DNA of 64,000 nucleotides from Alphaproteobacteria bacterium (GCA_017935245.1 JAGBHZ010000002.1:27735-91734), one strand, 5' to 3'. Positions 11,330-20,831 are shown, numbered from the stretch's first letter. The notes: generated from the sequence alone by a model not told the origin. Translations and numbers: made by a program.

Positions 11330-12067
11330 ATGAAAAAAATAAGCATTTTATTATGTATTTTGGCAATGCCGGCATTTGGTGCGGCAAAGCGGTGTGTAAA
11401 ACTGGACCCGGAAACAACCACATGCACGCCAACAAACCCAACATATGGCAATGTTGACTGGACGGCAACGTGCACGACCAAAGACAATGAAACAATTCCA
11501 ATCCTGGGGGTTGCGGCATGCGGGCGGGACGCTGCATCGGATGTTACCGAAATAGCCGGTTGGAAGACGTCTGATAGTATGCATGTATATCATAGTGGTG
11601 AAGAGTCTACAACTGATATACACATTGCCGTTTGTAGGTGTCGGATAATATACCCCGTCGTATCTGCGTGGGTAGAAATATCATTTGGCCAAGACCCCAC
11701 ATATATTCCAGAACCATTGGGATATGGTCCAAACGTATGCCTGTACGGATGTTCGTACGCGTGCGCAAATCGTGGTGGTACGTTTTATGAGGCCCTGCTT
11801 ACATCGGCGGCAAAATCACAAAGCGACACCGAATGCCCCGCCGGGTATATTGGCATCGATGAACCAACCTTCAAAATAGAAGACGCCTGTACCGATGACC
11901 CCGCTACTTCTTATAACATATCTATTAAATACACCCCACTGGGGGACGCAAATTCATGTTTGGATGACAATCCAGGCATAGACTGTGTATTATATGGTGA
12001 AAAAAACACATCGTACCATGATGACAGTGGCACATATGAATTTAATTCAATGTGTGTGATGGAATAA
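11330..12067 (+). CDS. Secreted Cys-rich hypothetical protein (paralog of 10863-11312)
   Basis: Signal peptide MKKISILLCILAMPAFGA; DW, ILGVAAC, CRCRIIYPVVSAW, CLYGCSYAC; C-terminal DDSGTYEFNSMC. Confidence 0.75.
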   Translation: MKKISILLCILAMPAFGAAKRCVKLDPETTTCTPTNPTYGNVDWTATCTTKDNETIPILGVAACGRDAASDVTEIAGWKTSDSMHVYHSGEESTTDIHIAVCRCRIIYPVVSAWVEISFGQDPTYIPEPLGYGPNVCLYGCSYACANRGGTFYEALLTSAAKSQSDTECPAGYIGIDEPTFKIEDACTDDPATSYNISIKYTPLGDANSCLDDNPGIDCVLYGEKNTSYHDDSGTYEFNSMCVME

Positions 12068-12091
12068 AAATCCCCCGTTTGGGGGATTTTT
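12066..12091 (+). terminator. Terminator after the Cys-rich gene pair
   Basis: aaaaatccccc-gttt-gggggattttt. Confidence 0.75.
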
Positions 12092-12142
12092 TTGATTCGC
12101 CCCTTTGTTTAATAAAAAAACACCCTTTCGGGTGTTAAATTC

Positions 12143-12190
12143 TGGTGCGAGCAAAGGGGCTCGAACCCTCGACCTCAACCTTGGCAAGGT
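12143..12190 (-). repeat. att site: duplicated 3' 48 nt of tRNA-Gly
   Basis: tggtgcgagcaaaggggctcgaaccctcgacctcaaccttggcaaggt, identical to 18964-19011; displaced terminator aacaccc/gggtgtt at 12119-12136. Confidence 0.95.
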
Positions 12191-12318
12191 AAATGCAGGC
12201 CGTTTTCTATCTTTTTACTACTTTTGCTCATTTGCTATTTTTACCTTGTTTCCTGCGTATTTTACCTTTACTTTTCGTTTCTGTCAATGTATAATTATAT
12301 CAAAGTTTTACTATTATC

Positions 12319-12341
12319 TTGTTGATATAGTGTTGATAAAA
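12319..12341. repeat. Putative integrase arm-type site (left)
   Basis: ttgttgatatagtgttgataaaa matches 18873-18895 at 22 of 23 positions and contains tandem tgttgat. Confidence 0.6.
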
Positions 12342-12372
12342 TATCAAGATAATAATAATCAAGGGGGACAAT

Positions 12373-13629
12373 ATGCCAGTTGAAAAGTTAACTTTGCCAT
12401 TCCTCAAAAATGTTAAATTGCCTGTTGGCAAACAGGTATTCTATTTTGATGAAAGTATGCCGCGATTTGGTGTGAGTGTCTTTCCGTCAGGCCGCAAGAC
12501 ATTTTTCATAAAATATCAGAACGAATACGGCAAGCCAAAATGGTTAAAAATCGGTCAATTTCCTATTATGACACTTGAACAAGCAAGAGAGGCAGCACGG
12601 GCAGCGTTGGTAAAAGTTGATTTGAACAAAGACCCCGCCAACGAAAAGCAAGGCAAACGCCACGCCAAAACAGTATCAGAATTGTGTGATTTATACCTGG
12701 AAATTGGTGTTGCACATAAAAAGCCGACAACCATAGCAAGCGACAAAGGACGCATAGAAACGCTTATAAAACCACTTATCGGTGCAATTCCTATTGAGGC
12801 ACTGACTCGCACAGATGTAACAACAATGATGACGGACATTATCAAGGGCGAAAAAATTCAAAAACACGAACCAAGTGGCAAACCTCGCGGCATCAGACGC
12901 GTTACTGGTGGCTCGGGTGCAGCAGCCCGAACCATTCAAACCCTTGGGGCAATAATGACTTTTGCCAAGAACCAAGGTTTCATATCAGAAAACCCCGTCC
13001 AAGGTGTAAAAAAACCAAAAGACAAGGTCCGCGATATATTCCTTACTTGGGACGAGGTGCGTGCCCTTGGTCGCATTTTAGCATTGCCACAGATACAGCA
13101 AATATACCCCCACATATGCACAATTATTCCTTTGCTTTTGTTAACGGGGTGTCGCAGAAATGAAATTTTAGAGTTACGGTGGGAATACATAGATTTTGAA
13201 AACCAAGTATTTAGATTTCCAGACACCAAAACTGGCAAACAAAATCGTCCATTTGGTATTGCCGCAAAGAAACTATTACAAAATATCAAAAACCAGACTC
13301 CGCACGCTAACACAGGCTGGGTATTTCCGTCTGTGCGTGGCGATAGCCATATTACAAATCTGTTAAAAACATTCAAAACCATATGTGCCACCAGAGATGA
13401 ACACGGACAAAGAATACTAAACAGGGACGATTTAACCTTGCACGCATTAAGACACACTTTTGCGACATTGGGGTCTGACCTTGGTTATGTTGAAAATACG
13501 ATGTCTGCATTATTGGGGCACCATTTGAGGACAGTAACAAGCCGTTACACACACGCCATTGACAAGAGCCTTATACTTGCGGCCAACGATATATCTTTGG
13601 CATTAGAAAAAGCATTAAACAATAAATAA
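12373..13629 (+). CDS. int: Tyrosine recombinase/integrase with N-terminal arm-binding domain
   Basis: LLTGCRRNEI, TKTG, LHALRHTFAT, LLGH...VTSRYTH; N-terminal FGVSVFPSGRKTFFIKY. Confidence 0.95.
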   Translation: MPVEKLTLPFLKNVKLPVGKQVFYFDESMPRFGVSVFPSGRKTFFIKYQNEYGKPKWLKIGQFPIMTLEQAREAARAALVKVDLNKDPANEKQGKRHAKTVSELCDLYLEIGVAHKKPTTIASDKGRIETLIKPLIGAIPIEALTRTDVTTMMTDIIKGEKIQKHEPSGKPRGIRRVTGGSGAAARTIQTLGAIMTFAKNQGFISENPVQGVKKPKDKVRDIFLTWDEVRALGRILALPQIQQIYPHICTIIPLLLLTGCRRNEILELRWEYIDFENQVFRFPDTKTGKQNRPFGIAAKKLLQNIKNQTPHANTGWVFPSVRGDSHITNLLKTFKTICATRDEHGQRILNRDDLTLHALRHTFATLGSDLGYVENTMSALLGHHLRTVTSRYTHAIDKSLILAANDISLALEKALNNK

Positions 13630-13640
13630 AGGGGGATAAT

Positions 13641-14222
13641 ATGCCACAAAAAAACTTAAAACGGGTGACAATATCAAAAAAGAAAACAACCAAAAACAAT
13701 ATCAAATTCAAACCTGCAAAAATACAGATTGTTGACCATTTTAACAATATGACACCTAAACAAATAGACGAATTTTGGGACAAAGCATTCAAAGTTAATG
13801 AAAAAGAACAAGCATTATTTGACCGCTATAAATTACAAAAACCATCTAGAAAAATACCAAAAGAAGCCCGAATGCTTATTCATAAAATGGCAAAAGAATT
13901 GGGATATTGGAAAGACGAAAATGTAATAGATTTAGTAAGTGGACCTGGTCGCCCAGGCAAGTGGGTAAATATTTTTGGGTGGACTTTTTACAACAGAGTG
14001 CAAGAACAAAAACAACAAACCCCACAACAAACAACCAATGCTTGCATACGAATCGTGAAAAACAAAAAAGAATACCGAAATGATTATGGGGACATACCTG
14101 TAAAAACACTGCAAGCCAGATACAAAGAATTAAAGAAAAAATATGAGCAGTGCAAAGATATTATTGACACACTAAAAGAATACGAACCTGATTTACAAGA
14201 ACTTGCAAAACAAATTCAATAA
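13641..14222 (+). CDS. Hypothetical protein of the element
   Basis: RBS aagggg, Lys-rich 193-aa ORF directly after int. Confidence 0.65.
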   Translation: MPQKNLKRVTISKKKTTKNNIKFKPAKIQIVDHFNNMTPKQIDEFWDKAFKVNEKEQALFDRYKLQKPSRKIPKEARMLIHKMAKELGYWKDENVIDLVSGPGRPGKWVNIFGWTFYNRVQEQKQQTPQQTTNACIRIVKNKKEYRNDYGDIPVKTLQARYKELKKKYEQCKDIIDTLKEYEPDLQELAKQIQ

Positions 14223-14380
14223 AACACCTCTTATATGGGACGAAAACCGTATAGATAATATCCGTGCCTCTTTCTTGAAGGACGGATATTTTTTTGCTTT
14301 ATCCGTCCCAAGAACGAATGAAATGATATGGGTAAAGATTGGCAAGAAAGCGAATCAAAACTATAACAAGAGGTAATGAA

Positions 14381-14602
14381 ATGACAAAATTTTTCACAAA
14401 GAAACAGGCGTCAAATTATATGACGGCCGAATTAGGGTTACCAGTGGCAGAAAAGACACTGTCAAAACTGATAACCATTGGCGGTGGTCCAGAATTTCAC
14501 AAATTCAATAAAAGGGTCGTTTATACCCAAACCGCACTTGATGAATGGGCAAAATCTCGTTTATCAAAACCACACAAAAATTCCAGCGAACAGGAGGCAT
14601 AA
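14381..14602 (+). CDS. AlpA/excisionase-like winged-HTH protein
   Basis: FTKKQASNYM...TLSKLITIGGGPEFHKFNKRVVYTQTALDEW. Confidence 0.75.
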   Translation: MTKFFTKKQASNYMTAELGLPVAEKTLSKLITIGGGPEFHKFNKRVVYTQTALDEWAKSRLSKPHKNSSEQEA

Positions 14603-15781
14603 ATGGCAACAAACGACACAGAAAAATTACCGTTTAAGGAAATTATTCCTTGGAACGAACCTGTTGACGGCACAGAATTGTTAAATAGTATTGAGGCAAT
14701 ATTCACTCGGTATTTATCATTGCCAGACGGTGCAGCCACCACCCAAGCCGTGTGGGTATTGCATACCTATTGCATTGACTTGTTTGAATTTACTCCACGC
14801 CTCTGTCTTGTATCGCCAGAAAAAAGGTGTGGAAAGACAACAAATTTAAGGTTGATTGAAAATCTATCTTACAGACCTGTCAATGTGGCTAGCACCTCAA
14901 CCGCAAGTTTATTTCGTGGCATTGACAAGTGGCACCCCACTATGTGCATTGACGAGGCAGACACATTCATTAACGGTTACGATGAGTTACGAGGCATTAT
15001 TAACGCAGGTTACGAACAAGACGGAAAAGTTAGCAGAACAGAATGTGTCGGCAAAAAATATGATGTTAAGTTGTTTCGTTGCTTTTCCCCTGTTGCGATT
15101 GCTGCCATTGGCTCAATACCAGGAACAATCGCGGACCGTGGTATTACAATTTGTATGCAACGCAAAAAAAGCGATGAACACAAAGACAAATTGCGAATTT
15201 CAAAAATCAAACCCAATTTATATGAAATTCAGCGTAAATGCTTACGCTTTGCAAAAGACAATAAAGGGGCAATAATAAATGCCGACCCAGATATTCCAAA
15301 TGTATTTAACGACAGGGCCGCAGATATTTGGGAAACATTATTCAAAATTGTTTCTGTTGTGTCCCCAGAATGGACGGAACGGCTGCGAATTGCCTCGTTG
15401 CTATTGTATAAATCAAAGATTGCGTCTGACCCACAATCTATAAGGGTTACACTATTGTCAGATATAAGGGACATTTTCAAAGAAAAAAATAACCCTAAAT
15501 ATATTGCCACCGAAAATTTGTTAAACGAACTCAAAGGCATAAAAATATCGCCTTGGGAACATTACAACAACAGAGGGTTAAACGACCATTCTTTGGCAGG
15601 GTTATTATCGTCATTCAATATAATATCGCACCAAATGAGGGCCCCAGACGGTAGAAAATACCGCTATGTGCTGAAAGATTTTCAAGACGCTTTTGAACGG
15701 TATTTGGCACCTCTACAAGATAACGAAAAAGATTGTGCCAGCGTGCCAGATGATACGGACATATTAGACATTCCAGATTAA
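14603..15781 (+). CDS. DUF3631-like replication/primase-associated NTPase of satellites
   Basis: PWNEPVDGTELL, WVLHTY, SPEKRCGKTT (Walker A), IDEADT, IINAGY, DRAADIWETL. Confidence 0.7.
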   Translation: MATNDTEKLPFKEIIPWNEPVDGTELLNSIEAIFTRYLSLPDGAATTQAVWVLHTYCIDLFEFTPRLCLVSPEKRCGKTTNLRLIENLSYRPVNVASTSTASLFRGIDKWHPTMCIDEADTFINGYDELRGIINAGYEQDGKVSRTECVGKKYDVKLFRCFSPVAIAAIGSIPGTIADRGITICMQRKKSDEHKDKLRISKIKPNLYEIQRKCLRFAKDNKGAIINADPDIPNVFNDRAADIWETLFKIVSVVSPEWTERLRIASLLLYKSKIASDPQSIRVTLLSDIRDIFKEKNNPKYIATENLLNELKGIKISPWEHYNNRGLNDHSLAGLLSSFNIISHQMRAPDGRKYRYVLKDFQDAFERYLAPLQDNEKDCASVPDDTDILDIPD

Positions 15782-15810
15782 GCAACTGTAACCAGTGGCA
15801 CAATGGCACA
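15734..15810. repeat. Convergent hexamer iteron pairs, candidate replication origin
   Basis: gtgcca at 15735 and 15743; its reverse complement tggcac at 15796 and 15804; 8-bp spacing in both pairs. Confidence 0.5.
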
Positions 15811-15831
15811 ATAAAAACAGAGGACACAAAA

Positions 15832-16215
15832 ATGGCAAACGAACAAAACTTAAAAGTATTAAGCCCGAACGAAGCACGAGAACTCGGTCGCATTGGAGGA
15901 CAGATGTCAGGAAAAGCACGCAGAGAACGCAAAAAATTGCGTGATATGGTTATGTCTATGGCAAACGGTCCTTTGCCATTTGACAATGATTATAGTCGCA
16001 ACCGATTCATAGAAAAATATCACATAGACAACCCGACAATTATAGACGGAATACTTGCACAGTTGGTTTCATCTGCATTGTATGGTGATATGGCAGCAAT
16101 TAAACTGTTTTTATCTTTAACGGCAGATACACCACAAATACCATTCCCAGCAGGACCATTAACAAAACAAAAATTTAAGGTTTCGTATGAAGCACAAAAA
16201 CAAAACTTTGAATAA
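15832..16215 (+). CDS. Terminase small subunit-like protein
   Basis: MANEQNL...EARELGRIGGQMSGKARRERKKLRD and ALYGDMAAIKL resemble phage TerS-like proteins. Confidence 0.55.
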   Translation: MANEQNLKVLSPNEARELGRIGGQMSGKARRERKKLRDMVMSMANGPLPFDNDYSRNRFIEKYHIDNPTIIDGILAQLVSSALYGDMAAIKLFLSLTADTPQIPFPAGPLTKQKFKVSYEAQKQNFE

Positions 16216-16232
16216 AACCAAAAGGAAACAAA

Positions 16233-16550
16233 ATGAATCAAACACTTTTTTACACACATTTCCCATATTGCATACAGCATTTAGGTGGGGACAGATACAT
16301 AATCTTGAATCGGAATTATAAACCACTTGGGCAAACAAATTTTGAATATGTGGACTATAATAAAGACCCGTCTGTTGTGCGTATGAAAATCACGACGAAA
16401 CAAGCCGAAAAACTATCTTACAAAGGCAAAGTTGAGTCAGACACTATTTGGTTGTATGAAAACACATACAACACATTTAGAAACCCGCAAGAATTTAACA
16501 ATTATGTAACCAGATTAAAATTATTGGCCACATTAACACCAAAAATCTAA
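16233..16550 (+). CDS. Hypothetical protein of the element
   Basis: RBS aagga; FPYCIQ...YIILNRNYKPLG motif recalled from mobile-element hypotheticals, no function assignable. Confidence 0.65.
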   Translation: MNQTLFYTHFPYCIQHLGGDRYIILNRNYKPLGQTNFEYVDYNKDPSVVRMKITTKQAEKLSYKGKVESDTIWLYENTYNTFRNPQEFNNYVTRLKLLATLTPKI

Positions 16551-16593
16551 TGTATGCTCTTTACTTTTTCTAAATAAGCATATAAAATAAGAA

Positions 16594-16815
16594 CTGAATC
16601 CGAGAGATTGGGTTCAGGGCTATTGCAGGCCTTATGTGTTCGGTGCGAAAGCATCGTTAAAAATGATGTTTCGGTGTTTTCCGCACCGTAATATCCCTGG
16701 CTTATGGTCGGGGAGTCGTTGGTTATAAAACAGGGGTAACCCGAAAGCCGCGGAATCATTTAACACATATGATTGCAATCTCCCTGACCGCTCTTTCTTG
16801 GGCGGTTAATTTTTT
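16594..16815 (+). ncRNA. Putative structured ncRNA inside the satellite
   Basis: TTTACT-17-TAAAAT promoter (16560-16588), nested helices 16622-16779, terminator gaccgctc/gggcggtt + T tract. Confidence 0.45.
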
Positions 16816-16833
16816 ATCAAAAAAGGCAAAAAA

Positions 16834-17331
16834 ATGAAAACAACGCGTCATTTAATTTTCTTGATTTTTGGGCTATTTTGTATTCCTGCACAAGCAAATT
16901 ATAATACCACTTGCCAAGGTATAGGCAATTCCGTTTATTGCAACACTTATGATTATGGTGCACCGTCAAACTATGGGGCTAATTGGGGAAATTCATTTTT
17001 ATCTGGGCTTAATGCAGGTATGCAAGCAAGAAAAAACGCCATAGAAACTCAAAACGCATTATTACAACAACAAATATTATTACAACAAGCGCAGCAAATG
17101 GCACGACAACAGCAACCCAAAATTTCATCGTGTAAAATATACAAGATTGTCGGGAAAGAATTTCCTGTTGGTCGTGTTGAACTTGTATTAACAAGAGTTG
17201 CAAGCGACAAATATCAGATTGTTGGCACAGACGCGTATGTTTTAACAAAAGATTGTTTCAGATATATGGAAAAACAACCTGTGATAGCGGATATAAACTA
17301 TTCGCCAAGCGACAGAATTTATTTTGAATAA
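16834..17331 (+). CDS. Secreted cargo protein
   Basis: Signal peptide ending PAQA; CQGIGNSVYCN motif; Gln-rich linker. Confidence 0.7.
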   Translation: MKTTRHLIFLIFGLFCIPAQANYNTTCQGIGNSVYCNTYDYGAPSNYGANWGNSFLSGLNAGMQARKNAIETQNALLQQQILLQQAQQMARQQQPKISSCKIYKIVGKEFPVGRVELVLTRVASDKYQIVGTDAYVLTKDCFRYMEKQPVIADINYSPSDRIYFE

Positions 17332-17348
17332 ACAAAGGGCTTTCTAAT

Positions 17349-17636
17349 ATGACGCGTATATTTTTATGTTTTATTTGTTGTTGTGTTCTGTCTGGGTGCA
17401 ACGAGGCTATGTTGCAGGGTTTAGCGGCAGGGTTAAGCCAATACGGACAAAACACCCAGGCAACAAACTATACATACACCCAGCCCACCACATACCGAGC
17501 ACCAACAACATATAACCGCATTGGGAACACGGTATATTCATCAAATGGGACAATGTATAACCAAATTGGCAATACCGTATATGGCACAGACGGCACTCAA
17601 TGCAGTAAAATTGGAAACACTGTTTATTGTAATTAA
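17349..17636 (+). CDS. Cargo lipoprotein with IGNTVY repeats
   Basis: Lipobox VLSGC; three IGNTVY repeats. Confidence 0.7.
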   Translation: MTRIFLCFICCCVLSGCNEAMLQGLAAGLSQYGQNTQATNYTYTQPTTYRAPTTYNRIGNTVYSSNGTMYNQIGNTVYGTDGTQCSKIGNTVYCN

Positions 17637-17657
17637 CAACTATAAAAAGGAAAAAAA

Positions 17658-18287
17658 ATGAAACAAATATCACTAGCAATAATTCTGTTTTCGTGTTTGG
17701 TCGCAACCAATGCATATGCGTTAAGTAAAAAGAGCCACGAAAAGGTAAATCTGTGTGTAAATATGTTAGGAGTGTCAACCTGTGAAATGGTTGAGGAAAA
17801 AGATGTTTATCAAACAGTTTATAATATGAAATACGACAGTTATTTTGGTTCTAGTTTAGAGTATTTTGATAAAATGGGCCTAGATAGTCATTATTTTGTA
17901 GATGATATGAAAAAATATACAGAATGTTATGCGGAAGCGTTCGCAAAAGAAGTAACGATGAAAGATGTCAATATGATATTTGACGAAACGACACCACCAG
18001 CAGCAAAAAATGCTTTGATAGACAATATTGCTTATAAATATGTAGATAAATGTAAGAAAAAATACGCACCATATATGAATAAAATGGAAGATGTATTACA
18101 GGTATATTTAGAAAAAGTGTGTGGCTCAACAACCCCAAGTAAATCAGTGGCAAAAAAATGCAAGAAACAATATAAAAATGAAGATGATATTATTAAGTGC
18201 CAACAAGAAAACGATGAATGGTATAAATGTCTAAATAAAATTATGACAGATACAGGCGATAAAATTATGAAAAATATGGCAGAGTAA
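17658..18287 (+). CDS. Secreted helical Cys-containing cargo protein
   Basis: Signal peptide MKQISLAIILFSCLVATNAYA; several spaced Cys. Confidence 0.7.
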   Translation: MKQISLAIILFSCLVATNAYALSKKSHEKVNLCVNMLGVSTCEMVEEKDVYQTVYNMKYDSYFGSSLEYFDKMGLDSHYFVDDMKKYTECYAEAFAKEVTMKDVNMIFDETTPPAAKNALIDNIAYKYVDKCKKKYAPYMNKMEDVLQVYLEKVCGSTTPSKSVAKKCKKQYKNEDDIIKCQQENDEWYKCLNKIMTDTGDKIMKNMAE

Positions 18288-18297
18288 GGGGAAAACA

Positions 18298-18522
18298 ATG
18301 AAAAAAATGATAATATTATGTCTTGGGTTGGGTTTGTTAGTTATTGGAACGGCAGACGCGGCATATACTCGCGGTCATATGCGTCGTAATGGCACATATG
18401 TATCAGGCTATCATCATACAACAGCAGACAAAACAAGAATAAATAACTATTCAACTCGCGGTAATTACAACCCTTATACAGGCAAAACAGGCACAAAACC
18501 ACTAACTAAATACGGGTATTAA
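18298..18522 (+). CDS. Small secreted cargo protein
   Basis: Signal peptide; NGTYVSGY...NNYSTRGNYNPYTGKTGT, a motif of a widespread small hypothetical family. Confidence 0.7.
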   Translation: MKKMIILCLGLGLLVIGTADAAYTRGHMRRNGTYVSGYHHTTADKTRINNYSTRGNYNPYTGKTGTKPLTKYGY

Positions 18523-18523
18523 A

Positions 18524-18661
18524 ATGGGAATCGGCACATTAACTCTTCTTTTTGTGATTCTTAAACTCTGTGGAGCCATATATTGGTCTTGGTTGTGGGT
18601 GTTGTCCCCACTATGGATTGGAGGTTTGCTTGCTTTGATTATAATGGGCAGCGAAAATTAA
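18524..18661 (+). CDS. 45-aa membrane protein (phage-type)
   Basis: MGIGTLTLLFVILKLCGAIYWSWLWVLSPLWIGG; not in the ORF track; the LKL.G...WSW.WV.SPLW pattern is common in phage small membrane proteins. Confidence 0.6.
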   Translation: MGIGTLTLLFVILKLCGAIYWSWLWVLSPLWIGGLLALIIMGSEN

Positions 18662-18872
18662 AACAATTTAATGGCAAGTTTTCGTTATATTCGTCATTTA
18701 CAATTTTTACACGAGTCAAAACACCATACCCACAATTATCAGACCCCGTGCCACCCCTCCCCAGGGGTCTTTTTTAACCAATATACGACACCAGAGGACA
18801 CACCATCGCAAATCAAAAACTCCGATTCTGTTCGCTTTGTTTTTCTATATTATTCCAACTTTTTCATACGAT

Positions 18873-18895
18873 TTGTTGATATACTGTTGATAAAA
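18873..18895. repeat. Putative integrase arm-type site (right)
   Basis: ttgttgatatactgttgataaaa matches 12319-12341 at 22 of 23 positions. Confidence 0.6.
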
Positions 18896-18898
18896 AAG

Positions 18899-18922
18899 AA
18901 AGACGGTAATTCTAACCGTCTT
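18899..18922 (-). terminator. Terminator supplied by the element downstream of tRNA-Gly
   Basis: aagacggt-aattcta-accgtctt with a T tract on the minus strand. Confidence 0.55.
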
Positions 18923-18963
18923 TATGTTTCTGTGTAAGTATTTGATTCTACTTACAAAAACTT

Positions 18964-19040
18964 TGGTGCGAGCAAAGGGGCTCGAACCCTCGACCTCAAC
19001 CTTGGCAAGGTTGCGCTCTAGCCAACTGAGCTACGCTCGC
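18964..19040 (-). tRNA. tRNA-Gly(GCC), integration target
   Basis: Reverse complement GCGAGCGTAGCTCAGTTGGCTAGAGCGCAACCTTGCCAAGGTTGAGGTCGAGGGTTCGAGCCCCTTTGCTCGCACCA. Confidence 0.97.
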
Positions 19041-19355
19041 ATTGCGTCGTATATATTGACATATATTTTTTCACATTGCAAGTACTTTTTTAAATTTTTA
19101 TTGCCCCGTATATAGTCTGGGCAATTTTGTTAACTTTGGCCCATGAAATACAAGAATTTATTTAAATATTCCTTTACTTTTGGTATTTTATTATTAATAA
19201 TAATGTCCAACACTAACAAATCGGTCATACAGGGCAGATAAAATATGTTAAATATAAAAAAACGTTTTAATTGAATGTGCGACCATCAGATTTAACGACG
19301 GGCGCACTTTCCATGCGTCCGTTTTTTATAAACAAAAACCAAGGGAAAACAAAAA

Positions 19356-20831
19356 ATGTCAGAAAATACAACGAATACATCGATTTCAACAAATGAATTG
19401 ACGGCACGTTTACAAAAGGCTGAAAATATCCGTGCCCGGGGCGGTGTTGTATGGAAAGACGAATTTGACCGCACACATACAATCGAATCCGCACGTGATT
19501 TGGCGGATGGTACCGCGGTGCGCCTGGCGGGGCGTGTAACGGCGCTGCGTTGGTTGGGCAAATTAATGTTTGGTCGTATTTATGACATTAATGGTGAAAT
19601 TCAGTTTTCTATGTCCCGCGAAGAATTAGGCGAAGAAAATTACAAATTTATGAAGGCAAACGTTGACTTGGGTGATTTTGTTGGCCTGACGGGTGAATTG
19701 TATCACACAACGGCGGGCGAATTAACGGTTCGGGTGTCGAAATATGAAATCCTGGCCAAGGCCCTGCGTCCATTGCCGGAAAAGTATCACGGCCTGACCG
19801 ATATGGAAACCAGATATCGCCAGCGTTATTTGGACATCATTTCAAACCCAGATGCACGCAATGCCTTGCTGGGGCGGTTCAAGATGACACAATATTGGCG
19901 TGATTATATGAACCGTAATGGTTTCTTGGAAATTGAAACACCGGTATTACAGAATATCGCATCCGGTGCGGCCGCGCGTCCATTTACCACACACCACAAT
20001 GCACTGGATGCAGATTTTCAGTTGCGTATTTCGCCTGAATTATTCTTGAAACAGGCAATCGGCGCCGGTTTTGACCGCGTGTACGAGGTTGCCAAAGATT
20101 TCCGCAACGAAGGTATGGATGCCACCCACCTGCAAGAATTTACAATGGTTGAATGGTATGCGGCATATTGGGATTACAAAGACAATATTAAATTCACATG
20201 GGATTTGGTCCAAGAATTGATTATGAAATGTCGTGGCACACTGCAAATTGAATACCAGGGCACCCCATTGGATTTCAGTAAATATGAAATGATTGACTAT
20301 ACGGCGAAAATGAACGAATTTTTTGGCTGTGATATCTTGGATTTTGATGATGTCGATGCCCTGCGCCAGAAGTTGGTGGATAACGGTATGTTCCCGATGG
20401 CGGAATTAGAAGATTTAAAATCTATCCCGACATTGGTTGATTATGTATATAAACGCAAAATCCGTAACGATATTATAAATCCAACGGTTTTGTATAATTA
20501 TCCGGCGTATATGGTGCCATTGGCGCGTCGCAATGACGCGGACGAACGTCGCATCGATATGTATCAATTGTTGGTATGTGGCGCCGAAATATGCAAGGGG
20601 TATTCAGAATTAGTCAATCCAATTCAACAATTGGCCGCATTCGAAGAACAGGCCCGTAATATTTCTAACGGCGACGAAGAAGCCTTTAATCCCGACAACG
20701 ACTTTGTTCGTGCAATGGAACACGGGTTCCCACCGATTTCCGGTGTTGGTATGGGGGTTGACCGCTTGGCCAGTATTATATTTGACCAACCAACCCTGCG
20801 CGATATTGTGTTATTCCCAATGATGAAATAG
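19356..20831 (+). CDS. lysS: Lysyl-tRNA synthetase, class II
   Basis: OB-fold anticodon domain, KALRPLPEKYHGL, YRQRYLD, LRISPEL, FRNEG, GMGVDRL. Confidence 0.95.
   Translation: MSENTTNTSISTNELTARLQKAENIRARGGVVWKDEFDRTHTIESARDLADGTAVRLAGRVTALRWLGKLMFGRIYDINGEIQFSMSREELGEENYKFMKANVDLGDFVGLTGELYHTTAGELTVRVSKYEILAKALRPLPEKYHGLTDMETRYRQRYLDIISNPDARNALLGRFKMTQYWRDYMNRNGFLEIETPVLQNIASGAAARPFTTHHNALDADFQLRISPELFLKQAIGAGFDRVYEVAKDFRNEGMDATHLQEFTMVEWYAAYWDYKDNIKFTWDLVQELIMKCRGTLQIEYQGTPLDFSKYEMIDYTAKMNEFFGCDILDFDDVDALRQKLVDNGMFPMAELEDLKSIPTLVDYVYKRKIRNDIINPTVLYNYPAYMVPLARRNDADERRIDMYQLLVCGAEICKGYSELVNPIQQLAAFEEQARNISNGDEEAFNPDNDFVRAMEHGFPPISGVGMGVDRLASIIFDQPTLRDIVLFPMMK

Follow-up and report, generated by a model that had tools for sequence, protein, structure and literature searches.

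We analyzed a 64,000-nucleotide stretch of DNA assembled from an Alphaproteobacteria bacterium (GCA_017935245.1 JAGBHZ010000002.1:27735-91734), hereafter called the window, in which a tRNA-Gly(GCC) gene harbors a 6.8-kb island that is probably a phage satellite. Coordinates are positions in the window, and features lie on the plus strand unless stated otherwise; L-numbers designate related loci or contigs and X-numbers sequencing runs. From left to right, the island comprises the left arm of its attachment site, genes for a tyrosine integrase (int), for a protein that varies between related islands (orf193), for a small excisionase, for a replication initiator/helicase (rep) and for a protein of the small terminase subunit (TerS) family, then orf105, a structured RNA leader, a block of five cargo genes and the right arm. 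Its ten accepted open reading frames (ORFs) are all (10/10) on the plus strand, and its GC content is 0.36-0.40, compared with 0.42-0.45 in the flanks.

The intact tRNA-Gly(GCC) gene occupies 18964..19040 on the minus strand (ARAGORN; Rfam tRNA score, 65.9 bits). A repeat search identified a direct repeat at 12137-12190 and 18958-19011, which is exact over 48 nt (12143-12190 = 18964-19011), with a start-to-start spacing of 6,821 bp between the two att copies. The exact repeat corresponds to positions 30 to 77 of the tRNA, beginning at the 5′ strand of the anticodon stem and finishing with the CCA end. The proximal att copy is the 3′ 48 nt of the intact gene (18964-19011), and the distal copy, on the attL side (12143..12190, minus strand), is a displaced duplicate of it. 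The integrase gene adjoins this partial tRNA copy, i.e., the end of the island distal to the intact tRNA.

Related genomes provided the uninterrupted site. The gene to the right of the island (19356-20831) codes for a class II aminoacyl-tRNA synthetase (lysS locus), and a search with it yielded 80 related loci at 82-95% amino-acid identity, all from gut metagenome-assembled genomes (MAGs) of ruminants, horses and other animals labeled Candidatus Enterousia or unclassified Alphaproteobacteria. None of the 80 loci encodes the island proteins, integrase included. In six of these relatives (L039, L049, L051, L067, L068 and L076), the terminator GAATTTAACACCCGAAAGGGTGTTTTTT comes directly after the 3′ end of an identical tRNA-Gly; the window has this sequence at 12097-12142, immediately left of the distal repeat. 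Written out, the empty attB junction is tRNA/GAATTTAACACCC..., and its uninterrupted state in the six relatives is independent proof of insertion. The island itself carries a tRNA terminator, detected at 18899-18923 in a promoter/terminator scan. Site-specific recombination placed the element in the 3′ portion of tRNA-Gly(GCC); the identity segment begins in the anticodon stem, and the new 3′ half of the tRNA, like a terminator, is provided by the element. In an integrated sister copy (L085), two compensatory T-stem variants of the element are present in the intact tRNA while the distal copy is of the host type, showing that strand exchange takes place on the anticodon side and that the 3′ part of the tRNA comes from the element. 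In the anticodon-loop class of tRNA-targeting tyrosine-integrase islands that Williams is said to have delineated in 2002, the identity block reportedly extends from the anticodon stem-loop as far as the 3′ end, with the 3′ part of the tRNA replaced by that of the element. The block at tRNA positions 30-77 and the L085 variants place the island in this class.

The tRNA-Gly locus is also a rearrangement hotspot. The tRNA gene and about 60 bp upstream of it (window 18964-19100) are inverted relative to the closest relatives (L002-L008), in which the tRNA faces the synthetase gene, and the window orientation is common to L006, L034, L049, L051, L059, L067, L069, L071 and L076. The neighboring genes of this tRNA and island are entirely different in L085 and L215. 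Downstream of the tRNA 3′ end, a number of relatives (L006, L010, L012, L039, L051, L053, L064, L067, L068, L071 and others) harbor one to three tandem units of ~100 nt, consisting of GCAAAGGGGCGAG...TTGCGAGGCGAGG...GAAGTACTTTGCTCGCACCA and then a terminator hairpin, and ending in the same 14 nt as the tRNA 3′ end. Only the first few bases of such a unit (CAAAGGGGCGA) remain in the window, at ~12060-12100. These units could be footprints of past integrations or mimics of the tRNA 3′ end.

The integrase (12373..13629; 418 aa) is a tyrosine recombinase with an N-terminal arm-DNA-binding domain (PF00589, Phage_integrase, 1.8e-18; PF13356, Arm-DNA-bind_3, 9e-15; phrog_1, 2.7e-61). An arm motif, GTTGATAnnnnGTTGATA, has two occurrences and no more in the 64 kb, where 0.04 would be expected by chance. 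One occurrence (12321-12338, GTTGATATAGTGTTGATA) is located in the left arm of attP and int upstream region (12191..12372), and the other (18875-18892) in the right arm (18678..18963), which also contains the tRNA terminator mentioned above. The motif is retained in an island that has a different core and resides in a tRNA-Val gene (L088). The 74-aa product of 14378..14602, whose mechanical ORF call begins at a TTG at 14339, resembles RdfS of a Mesorhizobium integrative and conjugative element (ICE) (PDB 8dgl; E 5.2e-6), HTH_17 (E 0.0028, short of the Pfam cut-off) and phrog_66, "excisionase and transcriptional regulator" (E 0.0023). A Pfam scan returned no match to the Phage_AlpA model, and the counterparts of this protein in sister islands carry PF12728. 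The RdfS match and the PF12728 domains of the sister proteins identify it as an excisionase, or recombination directionality factor, of the AlpA/Xis winged helix-turn-helix (HTH) class.

The right arm begins with a conserved segment of 96 nt (18678-18773) that ends in a short GC hairpin and a T-run. This segment is 92% identical in the tRNA-Val island despite unrelated adjoining cargo, and it is also present in L085, L095, L096 and L098. It is a candidate cis-acting site of the backbone, be it a packaging (pac) site, an origin of replication (ori) or an element of a 3′ untranslated region.

The rep gene (14603..15781) codes for a protein of 392 aa with a P-loop nucleoside triphosphatase (NTPase) and a DUF3631 domain (PF12307, 2.2e-38). 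DUF3631 is the RepAM family, named after the replication initiator of the integrative plasmid pMEA300 (PMC3218068). More than 3,000 DUF3631 homologs were found, many of them with a fused primase domain and the name "putative DNA primase/helicase"; the Rep protein of the window has no primase domain. The Walker A residues G77-K78 and the Walker B residues D117-E118 are invariant in an alignment of 26 sequences. With the AlphaFold model of Rep (predicted local distance difference test [pLDDT] score, 87), Foldseek returned MCM subunits, the C-terminal helicase of NrS-1, vaccinia D5, African swine fever virus PrimPol, adeno-associated virus Rep40 and PriRep1 of a Staphylococcus aureus pathogenicity island (SaPI), at E values of 1e-6 to 1e-5 and template-modeling (TM) scores of 0.3-0.4. 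The modeled protein thus resembles replicative hexameric helicases, and the island is probably self-copying. Only one protein in the phage database matched Rep, annotated "Rv2655c", and a search of IMG/VR for close relatives of it found none.

Five TGGCAC/GTGCCA hexamers cluster over the 3′ end of rep and the rep-terS spacer (15705..15809, no strand assigned), whereas elsewhere in the window there are at most two per 120 bp (simulated P ~0.0005). We regard this cluster as a candidate for ori iterons or for a pac site. As for read depth along rep, the segment 14842-15175 is covered 2-3x more deeply than the rest of the island in runs X1-X4, with the same loose end (AATTAACAGAAACAACAAAAGCAGGCGCTC) at 15052 in all four runs (4/4). 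Another element of these communities apparently has the 3′ part of rep, from 15052 onward, in common with the island.

The gene at 15832..16215 encodes a protein of 127 aa whose sole family match is phrog_2412 (1e-9), a family listed as of function unknown and related to DUF5681; the latter model is touched by 13 of 26 aligned relatives of the protein. None of the named TerS models of Pfam and NCBIfam matched it, a PDB profile search gave no match, and comparison of its model with predicted viral structures gave weak matches to uncharacterized phage proteins and to one "terminase small subunit" (E 0.05). Its relatives in phages occupy the TerS position. A homolog in Streptococcus pyogenes phage 315.4, 33% identical over 97 residues, is encoded immediately upstream of the large terminase and portal genes, and in two metagenomic phages (L093 and L094) the homologous gene overlaps or directly precedes terminase and head genes. 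In IMG/VR, 77 of 80 contigs with a TerS relative have an ORF of 394-743 aa starting a few bases downstream (one such ORF being cut at the contig end), and these 77 ORFs match Terminase_3 in 46 cases and Terminase_6N in 32. Two prophages in gut alphaproteobacterial MAGs (L198 and L200) present the order TerS-like protein, large terminase (TerL), portal, protease and major head protein, and the L200 protein is 41% identical to that of the island over 86 residues.

The N terminus of these proteins, MANEQNL...EARELGRxGGxxSGxxRR, is invariant in islands and phages, and similarity to the phage proteins at the TerS position extends beyond this motif, spanning 76-88% of the 127 residues. A TerS profile search of IMG/VR returned only phage-type relatives and no island; full-length identities were 27-41%, with higher values only over the N-terminal motif. 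Relatives that fall in phrog_2412/DUF5681 include those at L093 4726-5178, L082 4001-4474 and L198 10001-10348. By synteny, the family of the 15832 protein is that of a phage small terminase, of which the island protein is a full-length member. This is good evidence of ancestry and, indirectly, suggests that the island TerS may still package DNA. Pfam and PHROG searches identified no capsid, portal, tail, holin, lysis or head-tail connector genes among the 11 island ORFs.

Mobility of the element was apparent from circular contigs. An exact look-up of the TerS protein led to a contig of 6,940 bp (L218; assembly ERZ27291662, k119) with a terminal overlap of 119 nt. Its unique length, 6,821 bp, is that of the island unit, and it aligns without gaps to 12191-19011 at 98.99% identity. 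The predicted attP, assembled from 300 nt of the right arm, the 48-nt core and 300 nt of the left arm, matches it at 647 of 648 positions. Two contigs (L095 and L096), each from an assembly of its own, have overlaps of 141 and 55 nt, respectively, and each closes to 5,956 bp with an uninterrupted attP; the assemblies behind the three circles are ERZ27291662, ERZ27297719 and ERZ28633369. L095 and L096 represent a sister element with different cargo; compared with the window, the products of its int, rep, terS and orf105 genes are 99, 98, 94 and 98% identical, respectively. In the circular contigs the right arm is contiguous with the core and the left arm. Each of the three overlaps is longer than the 48-bp core, which excludes closure by the repeat alone. 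There must be molecules in nature in which right arm and left arm are joined, and the element either undergoes precise excision or forms head-to-tail copies.

The L218 circle has all its ORFs intact. Between the window and L218, the ratios of synonymous to nonsynonymous codon changes are 34:1 for int, 27:8 for rep, 13:7 for terS and 7:9 for orf193, pointing to purifying selection on int, rep and terS. In four runs, the island was present and the window flanks were absent at 90% likeness. Logan contigs of eight runs, when mapped to the locus, showed no attP or attB joint; as they are assembled with k=31 and end at the 48-bp core, such joints could not show in them. Exact-pattern scans for attP gave no hits in JGI metagenomes, IMG/VR or GTDB representatives, and since the core/left-arm junction was likewise not found in those databases, the attP negative is uninformative there. 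A DNA search of 50,697 phage records with the whole island matched only the tRNA. Every testable element of a sequence-only reading of this locus is borne out by these data: an exact att duplication with matching arm sites, an intact integrase gene at the end distal to the intact tRNA, an AlpA-like HTH protein, a DUF3631-like NTPase of a replication initiator family, a TerS-like gene, a single-strand gene set devoid of capsid and tail genes, and continued mobility, to which the circular contig with the predicted attP now attests. The refuting condition set in that reading, a 14603 protein lacking a replication function, does not hold, given its RepAM family and helicase-like model.

The island is part of a family. 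A core of int, variable gene, excisionase, rep and terS, often followed by orf105, recurs in ~12 Enterousia-like assemblies. The targets are tRNA-Gly(GCC), tRNA-Val(CAC) and tRNA-Ser(GCT), the tRNA always being at the int-distal end, and the tRNA-Val(CAC) island has a 49-bp repeat and a unit of 6,833 bp. In L088 and L182, rep is replaced by a gene for an AAA_25 protein; across the islands, no other gene accompanies the replication gene as regularly as terS does, even where the replication gene is swapped. Defense genes occupy the cargo and int-proximal slots of two members, with a type I restriction-modification system, a KAP NTPase and GmrSD (type IV restriction) in L089 (643-7532 and 10417-13995), and a KAP NTPase with an NgoFVII-like endonuclease in L100 (4252-7128). 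An identical TerS protein was found in at least three chromosomal contexts. A common core at several tRNA genes, swapping of rep, defense cargo and the presence of TerS in several contexts are together a behavior typical of satellites.

Downstream of terS, orf105 (16233..16550) is a core gene that always adjoins terS in close sister islands (L086-L088, L095, L096 and L214-L218); its 18 homologs are all without a name. It is followed by a structured RNA leader of ~215 nt (16595..16808), preceded by a promoter-like site (16560-16588) and ending in an intrinsic terminator (16785-16808). Rfam contains no match to this RNA. We found 17 other homologous copies of it, in islands and at chromosomal sites, among them L085 7287-7499, L088 10777-10993, L098 864-1082, two in L185, L186-L188, L196, L069 8277-8496, L081 8060-8266 and L035 14091-14311. 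In an alignment of 13 sequences including that of the window, 95.7% of the cells were paired, versus 42-55% in slid controls, and 19 pairs covaried with changes on both sides, versus 12.1 in shuffles, none of 500 shuffles reaching 19. The left arm of the terminator and a long-range closing helix have bases in common, a riboswitch-like arrangement. In nearly all cases, the RNA stops 20-25 nt short of the start codon of a gene for a membrane or secreted protein, these proteins being unrelated. It has the appearance of a new kind of regulatory leader. In run X5 its depth was ~5x that of the island, indicating that many copies are present in the community. A 70-aa ORF on the minus strand of this region (16547-16759) was rejected in favor of the structured RNA, given the compensatory changes.

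The cargo block (16834..18661) encodes, judging from the translations, five small exported or membrane proteins. The first (16834-17331), third (17658-18287) and fourth (18298-18522) have signal peptides, and the fourth matches phrog_29674 (5e-15); the second (17349-17636) has the lipobox LSGC, and the fifth (18524-18661) is a 45-aa membrane peptide. Sister islands have other cargo in place of these genes. An 88-aa ORF at 18671-18937 was not accepted; it overlaps the arm sites and the terminator. The variable slot between int and the excisionase gene is occupied here by orf193 (13641..14222), which has no family or PDB match; unrelated genes for proteins of 131, 203 and 285 aa take its place in sister islands. 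A role in sensing, immunity or defense against phages, with rapid evolution, is possible for it. Pfam and NCBIfam offered no named family for orf193, orf105 or the cargo proteins, and PADLOC detected no known defense gene in the window copy. Outside the island, between the HU gene and the next ORF, a hypervariable stretch of high depth (10645-10800) shows many alternative letters and, in three runs, a skip of 143 nt.

Altogether, the island is probably an intact, active and minimalist phage satellite of the kind of phage-inducible chromosomal islands (PICIs) or VEIMEs (integrative mobile elements encapsidated in virions), resident in Candidatus Enterousia. Because it has a phage small-terminase gene and lacks virion genes, it most likely spreads inside the capsids of a helper phage, as the TerS homolog leads us to infer. 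Excision would be carried out by the integrase, acting at GTTGATAn4GTTGATA sites on both arms, together with the 74-aa RdfS/AlpA-type factor, which may in addition activate the operon downstream. The P-loop protein of the RepAM/DUF3631 family would act as a self-loading initiator-helicase at an origin, for which the TGGCAC cluster at the 3′ end of rep is a candidate, with priming presumably borrowed from the host or the helper, given that there is no primase. The island TerS would bind a pac site of the island and recruit the large terminase of the helper phage. Head-to-tail multimers of the 6.8-kb unit could be packaged by the headful into full-size helper capsids, with ~5-6 copies per head of 35-40 kb, which would make redirection of capsid size unnecessary. 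The slot after terS and orf105 would be one of exchangeable cargo, here small exported proteins placed behind the RNA leader, and in sister islands restriction or other defense genes that might pay the host for carriage.

A number of observations weigh against this interpretation. The 64-kb window contains no TerL gene, second integrase or second island, and no helper phage was identified. Searches with Pfam, PHROG, NCBIfam and PADLOC found no primase, capsid-remodeling or packaging-interference genes in the island, and we also count on this side that orf193 and orf105 have no assigned function. The AlphaFold model of the 15832 protein (pLDDT 79) matched none of the solved TerS structures, and this, together with the weak matches among predicted structures, makes the TerS assignment one by gene position. 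No copy of the island was found in IMG/VR, INPHARED phage records or JGI metagenome contigs, and no virome copy turned up. The three circular contigs have names typical of whole-community assemblies, judged from the names only. Four runs contain most of the island, and in these it is covered as deeply as the flanks (~6x), with no sign of amplification. In two otherwise near-identical integrated copies, the rep gene calls are shorter, at 279 and 316 aa instead of 392 (L214 9111-9950 and L219 4100-5050, respectively), which could reflect natural decay or assembly/frameshift errors. As to the attP junction, a head-to-tail pair in the chromosome would produce it as well, yet such a pair also needs a circular intermediate, and a free circle is equally expected of an integrative plasmid of the RepAM kind.

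Such an autonomously replicating, integrative plasmid-like element, in the style of pMEA300 or pSAM2 and without transfer genes, would alternate between the tRNA site and the free circle and spread passively by vesicles, generalized transduction or natural transformation, while its TerS-like protein would serve as a DNA-binding regulator or a partition factor. We hold this to be unlikely but worth keeping in mind. It would readily account for a DUF3631 protein, the initiator type of pMEA300, and for circles that apparently stem from bulk metagenome assemblies without a counterpart in viromes; the conserved part of the TerS-like protein is a short N-terminal basic motif that also scores on KGG/DUF5681 models, and the missing solved-structure match fits as well. 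However, similarity to the phage proteins covers 76-88% of the TerS-like protein and not the motif only, terS stays with the replication gene more constantly than any other gene, even when that gene is exchanged, no partition, toxin-antitoxin or transfer genes were found, and the order int, regulator, rep, terS and cargo is that of TerS-bearing satellites. An integrative mobilizable element (IME) riding the conjugative system of a co-resident ICE or plasmid is quite improbable. The small size, the location in a tRNA gene and the combination of int with a factor resembling RdfS, itself from an alphaproteobacterial ICE, would suit it, and the defense cargo of the sister islands is common on IMEs too; but a relaxase, a coupling protein, an FtsK-like Tra protein or a recognizable oriT was found in none of more than 10 family members, which carry a phage packaging gene instead. 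The shortened rep calls and the chromosome-like depth in four runs could also be signs of a decayed prophage remnant or an inactive, generic genomic island. This we consider very improbable, as the three circular assemblies with a precise attP largely refute it; moreover, all ORFs are intact in the circle, int, rep and terS appear to be under purifying selection, and the compact architecture is kept at three different tRNA targets with no relics of structural genes.

Candidatus Enterousia and its relatives are uncultured bacteria that are common in the guts of ruminants, horses and poultry, and to our knowledge nothing is known of their phages and mobile elements. As a phage satellite, the island would represent an apparent minimum of the TerS type, with an integrase, a directionality factor, a helicase-initiator and TerS in ~4 kb, and a matching circle seen in nature. 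It would link the RepAM/DUF3631 initiators of actinomycete integrative plasmids to satellite replication, and synteny gives a functional label, that of small terminase, to the widespread phage family phrog_2412/DUF5681, an annotation gap that can be closed. Its natural cargo slot, in which defense systems and envelope proteins would be exchanged among strains, bears on the dynamics between phages and their hosts in rumen and hindgut, and the structured RNA is a separate lead for RNA biology. A more far-reaching proposal, which we put forward tentatively and regard as possible rather than likely, is that of an undescribed satellite family of gut Alphaproteobacteria with a core of int, a factor resembling RdfS, a self-loading helicase that can be exchanged, a TerS of the phrog_2412 family and orf105. 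Its members would replicate in part as episomes and travel as concatemers, and their cargo would be gated by a new riboswitch-like class of leader whose closing helix competes with the terminator and which, on satellites and chromosome alike, is always placed 20-25 nt upstream of genes for unrelated envelope proteins.

P4-like satellites have in common with the island insertion in tRNA genes, an integrase, an AlpA-class regulator and, in kind, a replicative primase-helicase, and defense hotspots are common in them. In contrast, Sid, Psu, Delta, Epsilon and the alpha primase-helicase have no match here (Pfam, PHROG), and P4 has no terS, uses cos packaging and shrinks the capsid. Capsid-forming PICIs (cfPICIs) have their own capsid, portal, head-tail adaptor/connector and TerL genes, none of which is in the island. 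The actinomycete ICE (AICE) pMEA300 shares the DUF3631/RepAM initiator, but AICEs have actinobacterial hosts and an FtsK/SpoIIIE-type Tra protein (PF01580), to which neither the island nor its sisters have a match. A DUF3631 initiator is also shared by the mycobacterial elements of the phiRv1/phiRv2 type, and SatelliteFinder scores mycobacterial elements as Type B PICIs; the phiRv elements carry capsid, protease and terminase genes, and their hosts are Actinobacteria.

PICIs are defined by five core components, an integrase, a regulator (alpA, merR or stl), a primase-replicase, a capsid-morphogenesis or packaging-interference function and TerS (PMC10085698). We likened the island to them by this list of components. 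The integrase is present (PF00589, PF13356 and phrog_1), and TerS is present by gene position upstream of TerL, not by a named model or a solved structure. The putative regulator, which is of the same fold class, and the replicase may be alike in kind, not by the PICI family's own profiles, and there is no primase. Capsid-morphogenesis or packaging-interference genes are absent, as they also are from SaPI-type PICIs, and so are the components that a PICI must not have (tail, holin, portal and head-tail connector). The description of the element as PICI-like in the sequence-only reading is therefore right, while the full PICI definition does not apply. The TerS-bearing PICIs (SaPI1 and SaPIbov1; "Type B" PICI of SatelliteFinder, PMC10085698) show the same order of int, small regulator/excisionase, initiator-helicase, terS and accessory genes; the Rep model resembles the helicase fold of the SaPI protein PriRep1, and the presumed shared mechanism is that of a satellite TerS redirecting the TerL of the helper. 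At 6.8 kb, the island is about half their size (roughly 10-18 kb), and it has no primase, capsid-morphogenesis gene, Ppi/Rpp-type interference gene or Stl-type repressor. Its Rep belongs to RepAM/DUF3631, its TerS to the unannotated phrog_2412, its genes run in one direction and its host is a gut alphaproteobacterium.

PICMIs, the minimalist phage-inducible chromosomal islands of Vibrionaceae (Barcia-Cruz et al. 2024), have no terS, lie next to fis, carry int, AlpA and primase genes and rely on virulent helpers (PMC10803314). The island differs from them in having terS, a helicase-type Rep instead of a primase and a tRNA target, and is not a PICMI; nevertheless, it resembles them in its minimalist content, in the lack of capsid remodeling, in a slot for defense or cargo genes and, presumably, in concatemer/headful packaging. 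VEIMEs are marine elements, some with hosts among the Alphaproteobacteria, that range from <5 to 16.8 kb (Eppley et al. 2022; PMC9618062). They carry tyrosine integrases, AlpA-type regulators, primase/helicases and TerS homologs, and are found as concatemers in full-size capsids (PMC9618062), the packaging mode that we infer here. The earlier claim of a minimal satellite in a lineage where satellites are poorly described stands as regards small size and minimal content, and its lineage argument is weakened by these alphaproteobacterial VEIMEs. They were defined by sequencing from virions of marine plankton, whereas the island is known from assembled DNA alone and from ruminant and equine guts. 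Compared by description, VEIMEs are the closest known system in size, gene set and host class, and there is precedent for the packaging of satellites of <7 kb as concatemers (PMC9618062, PMC10803314).

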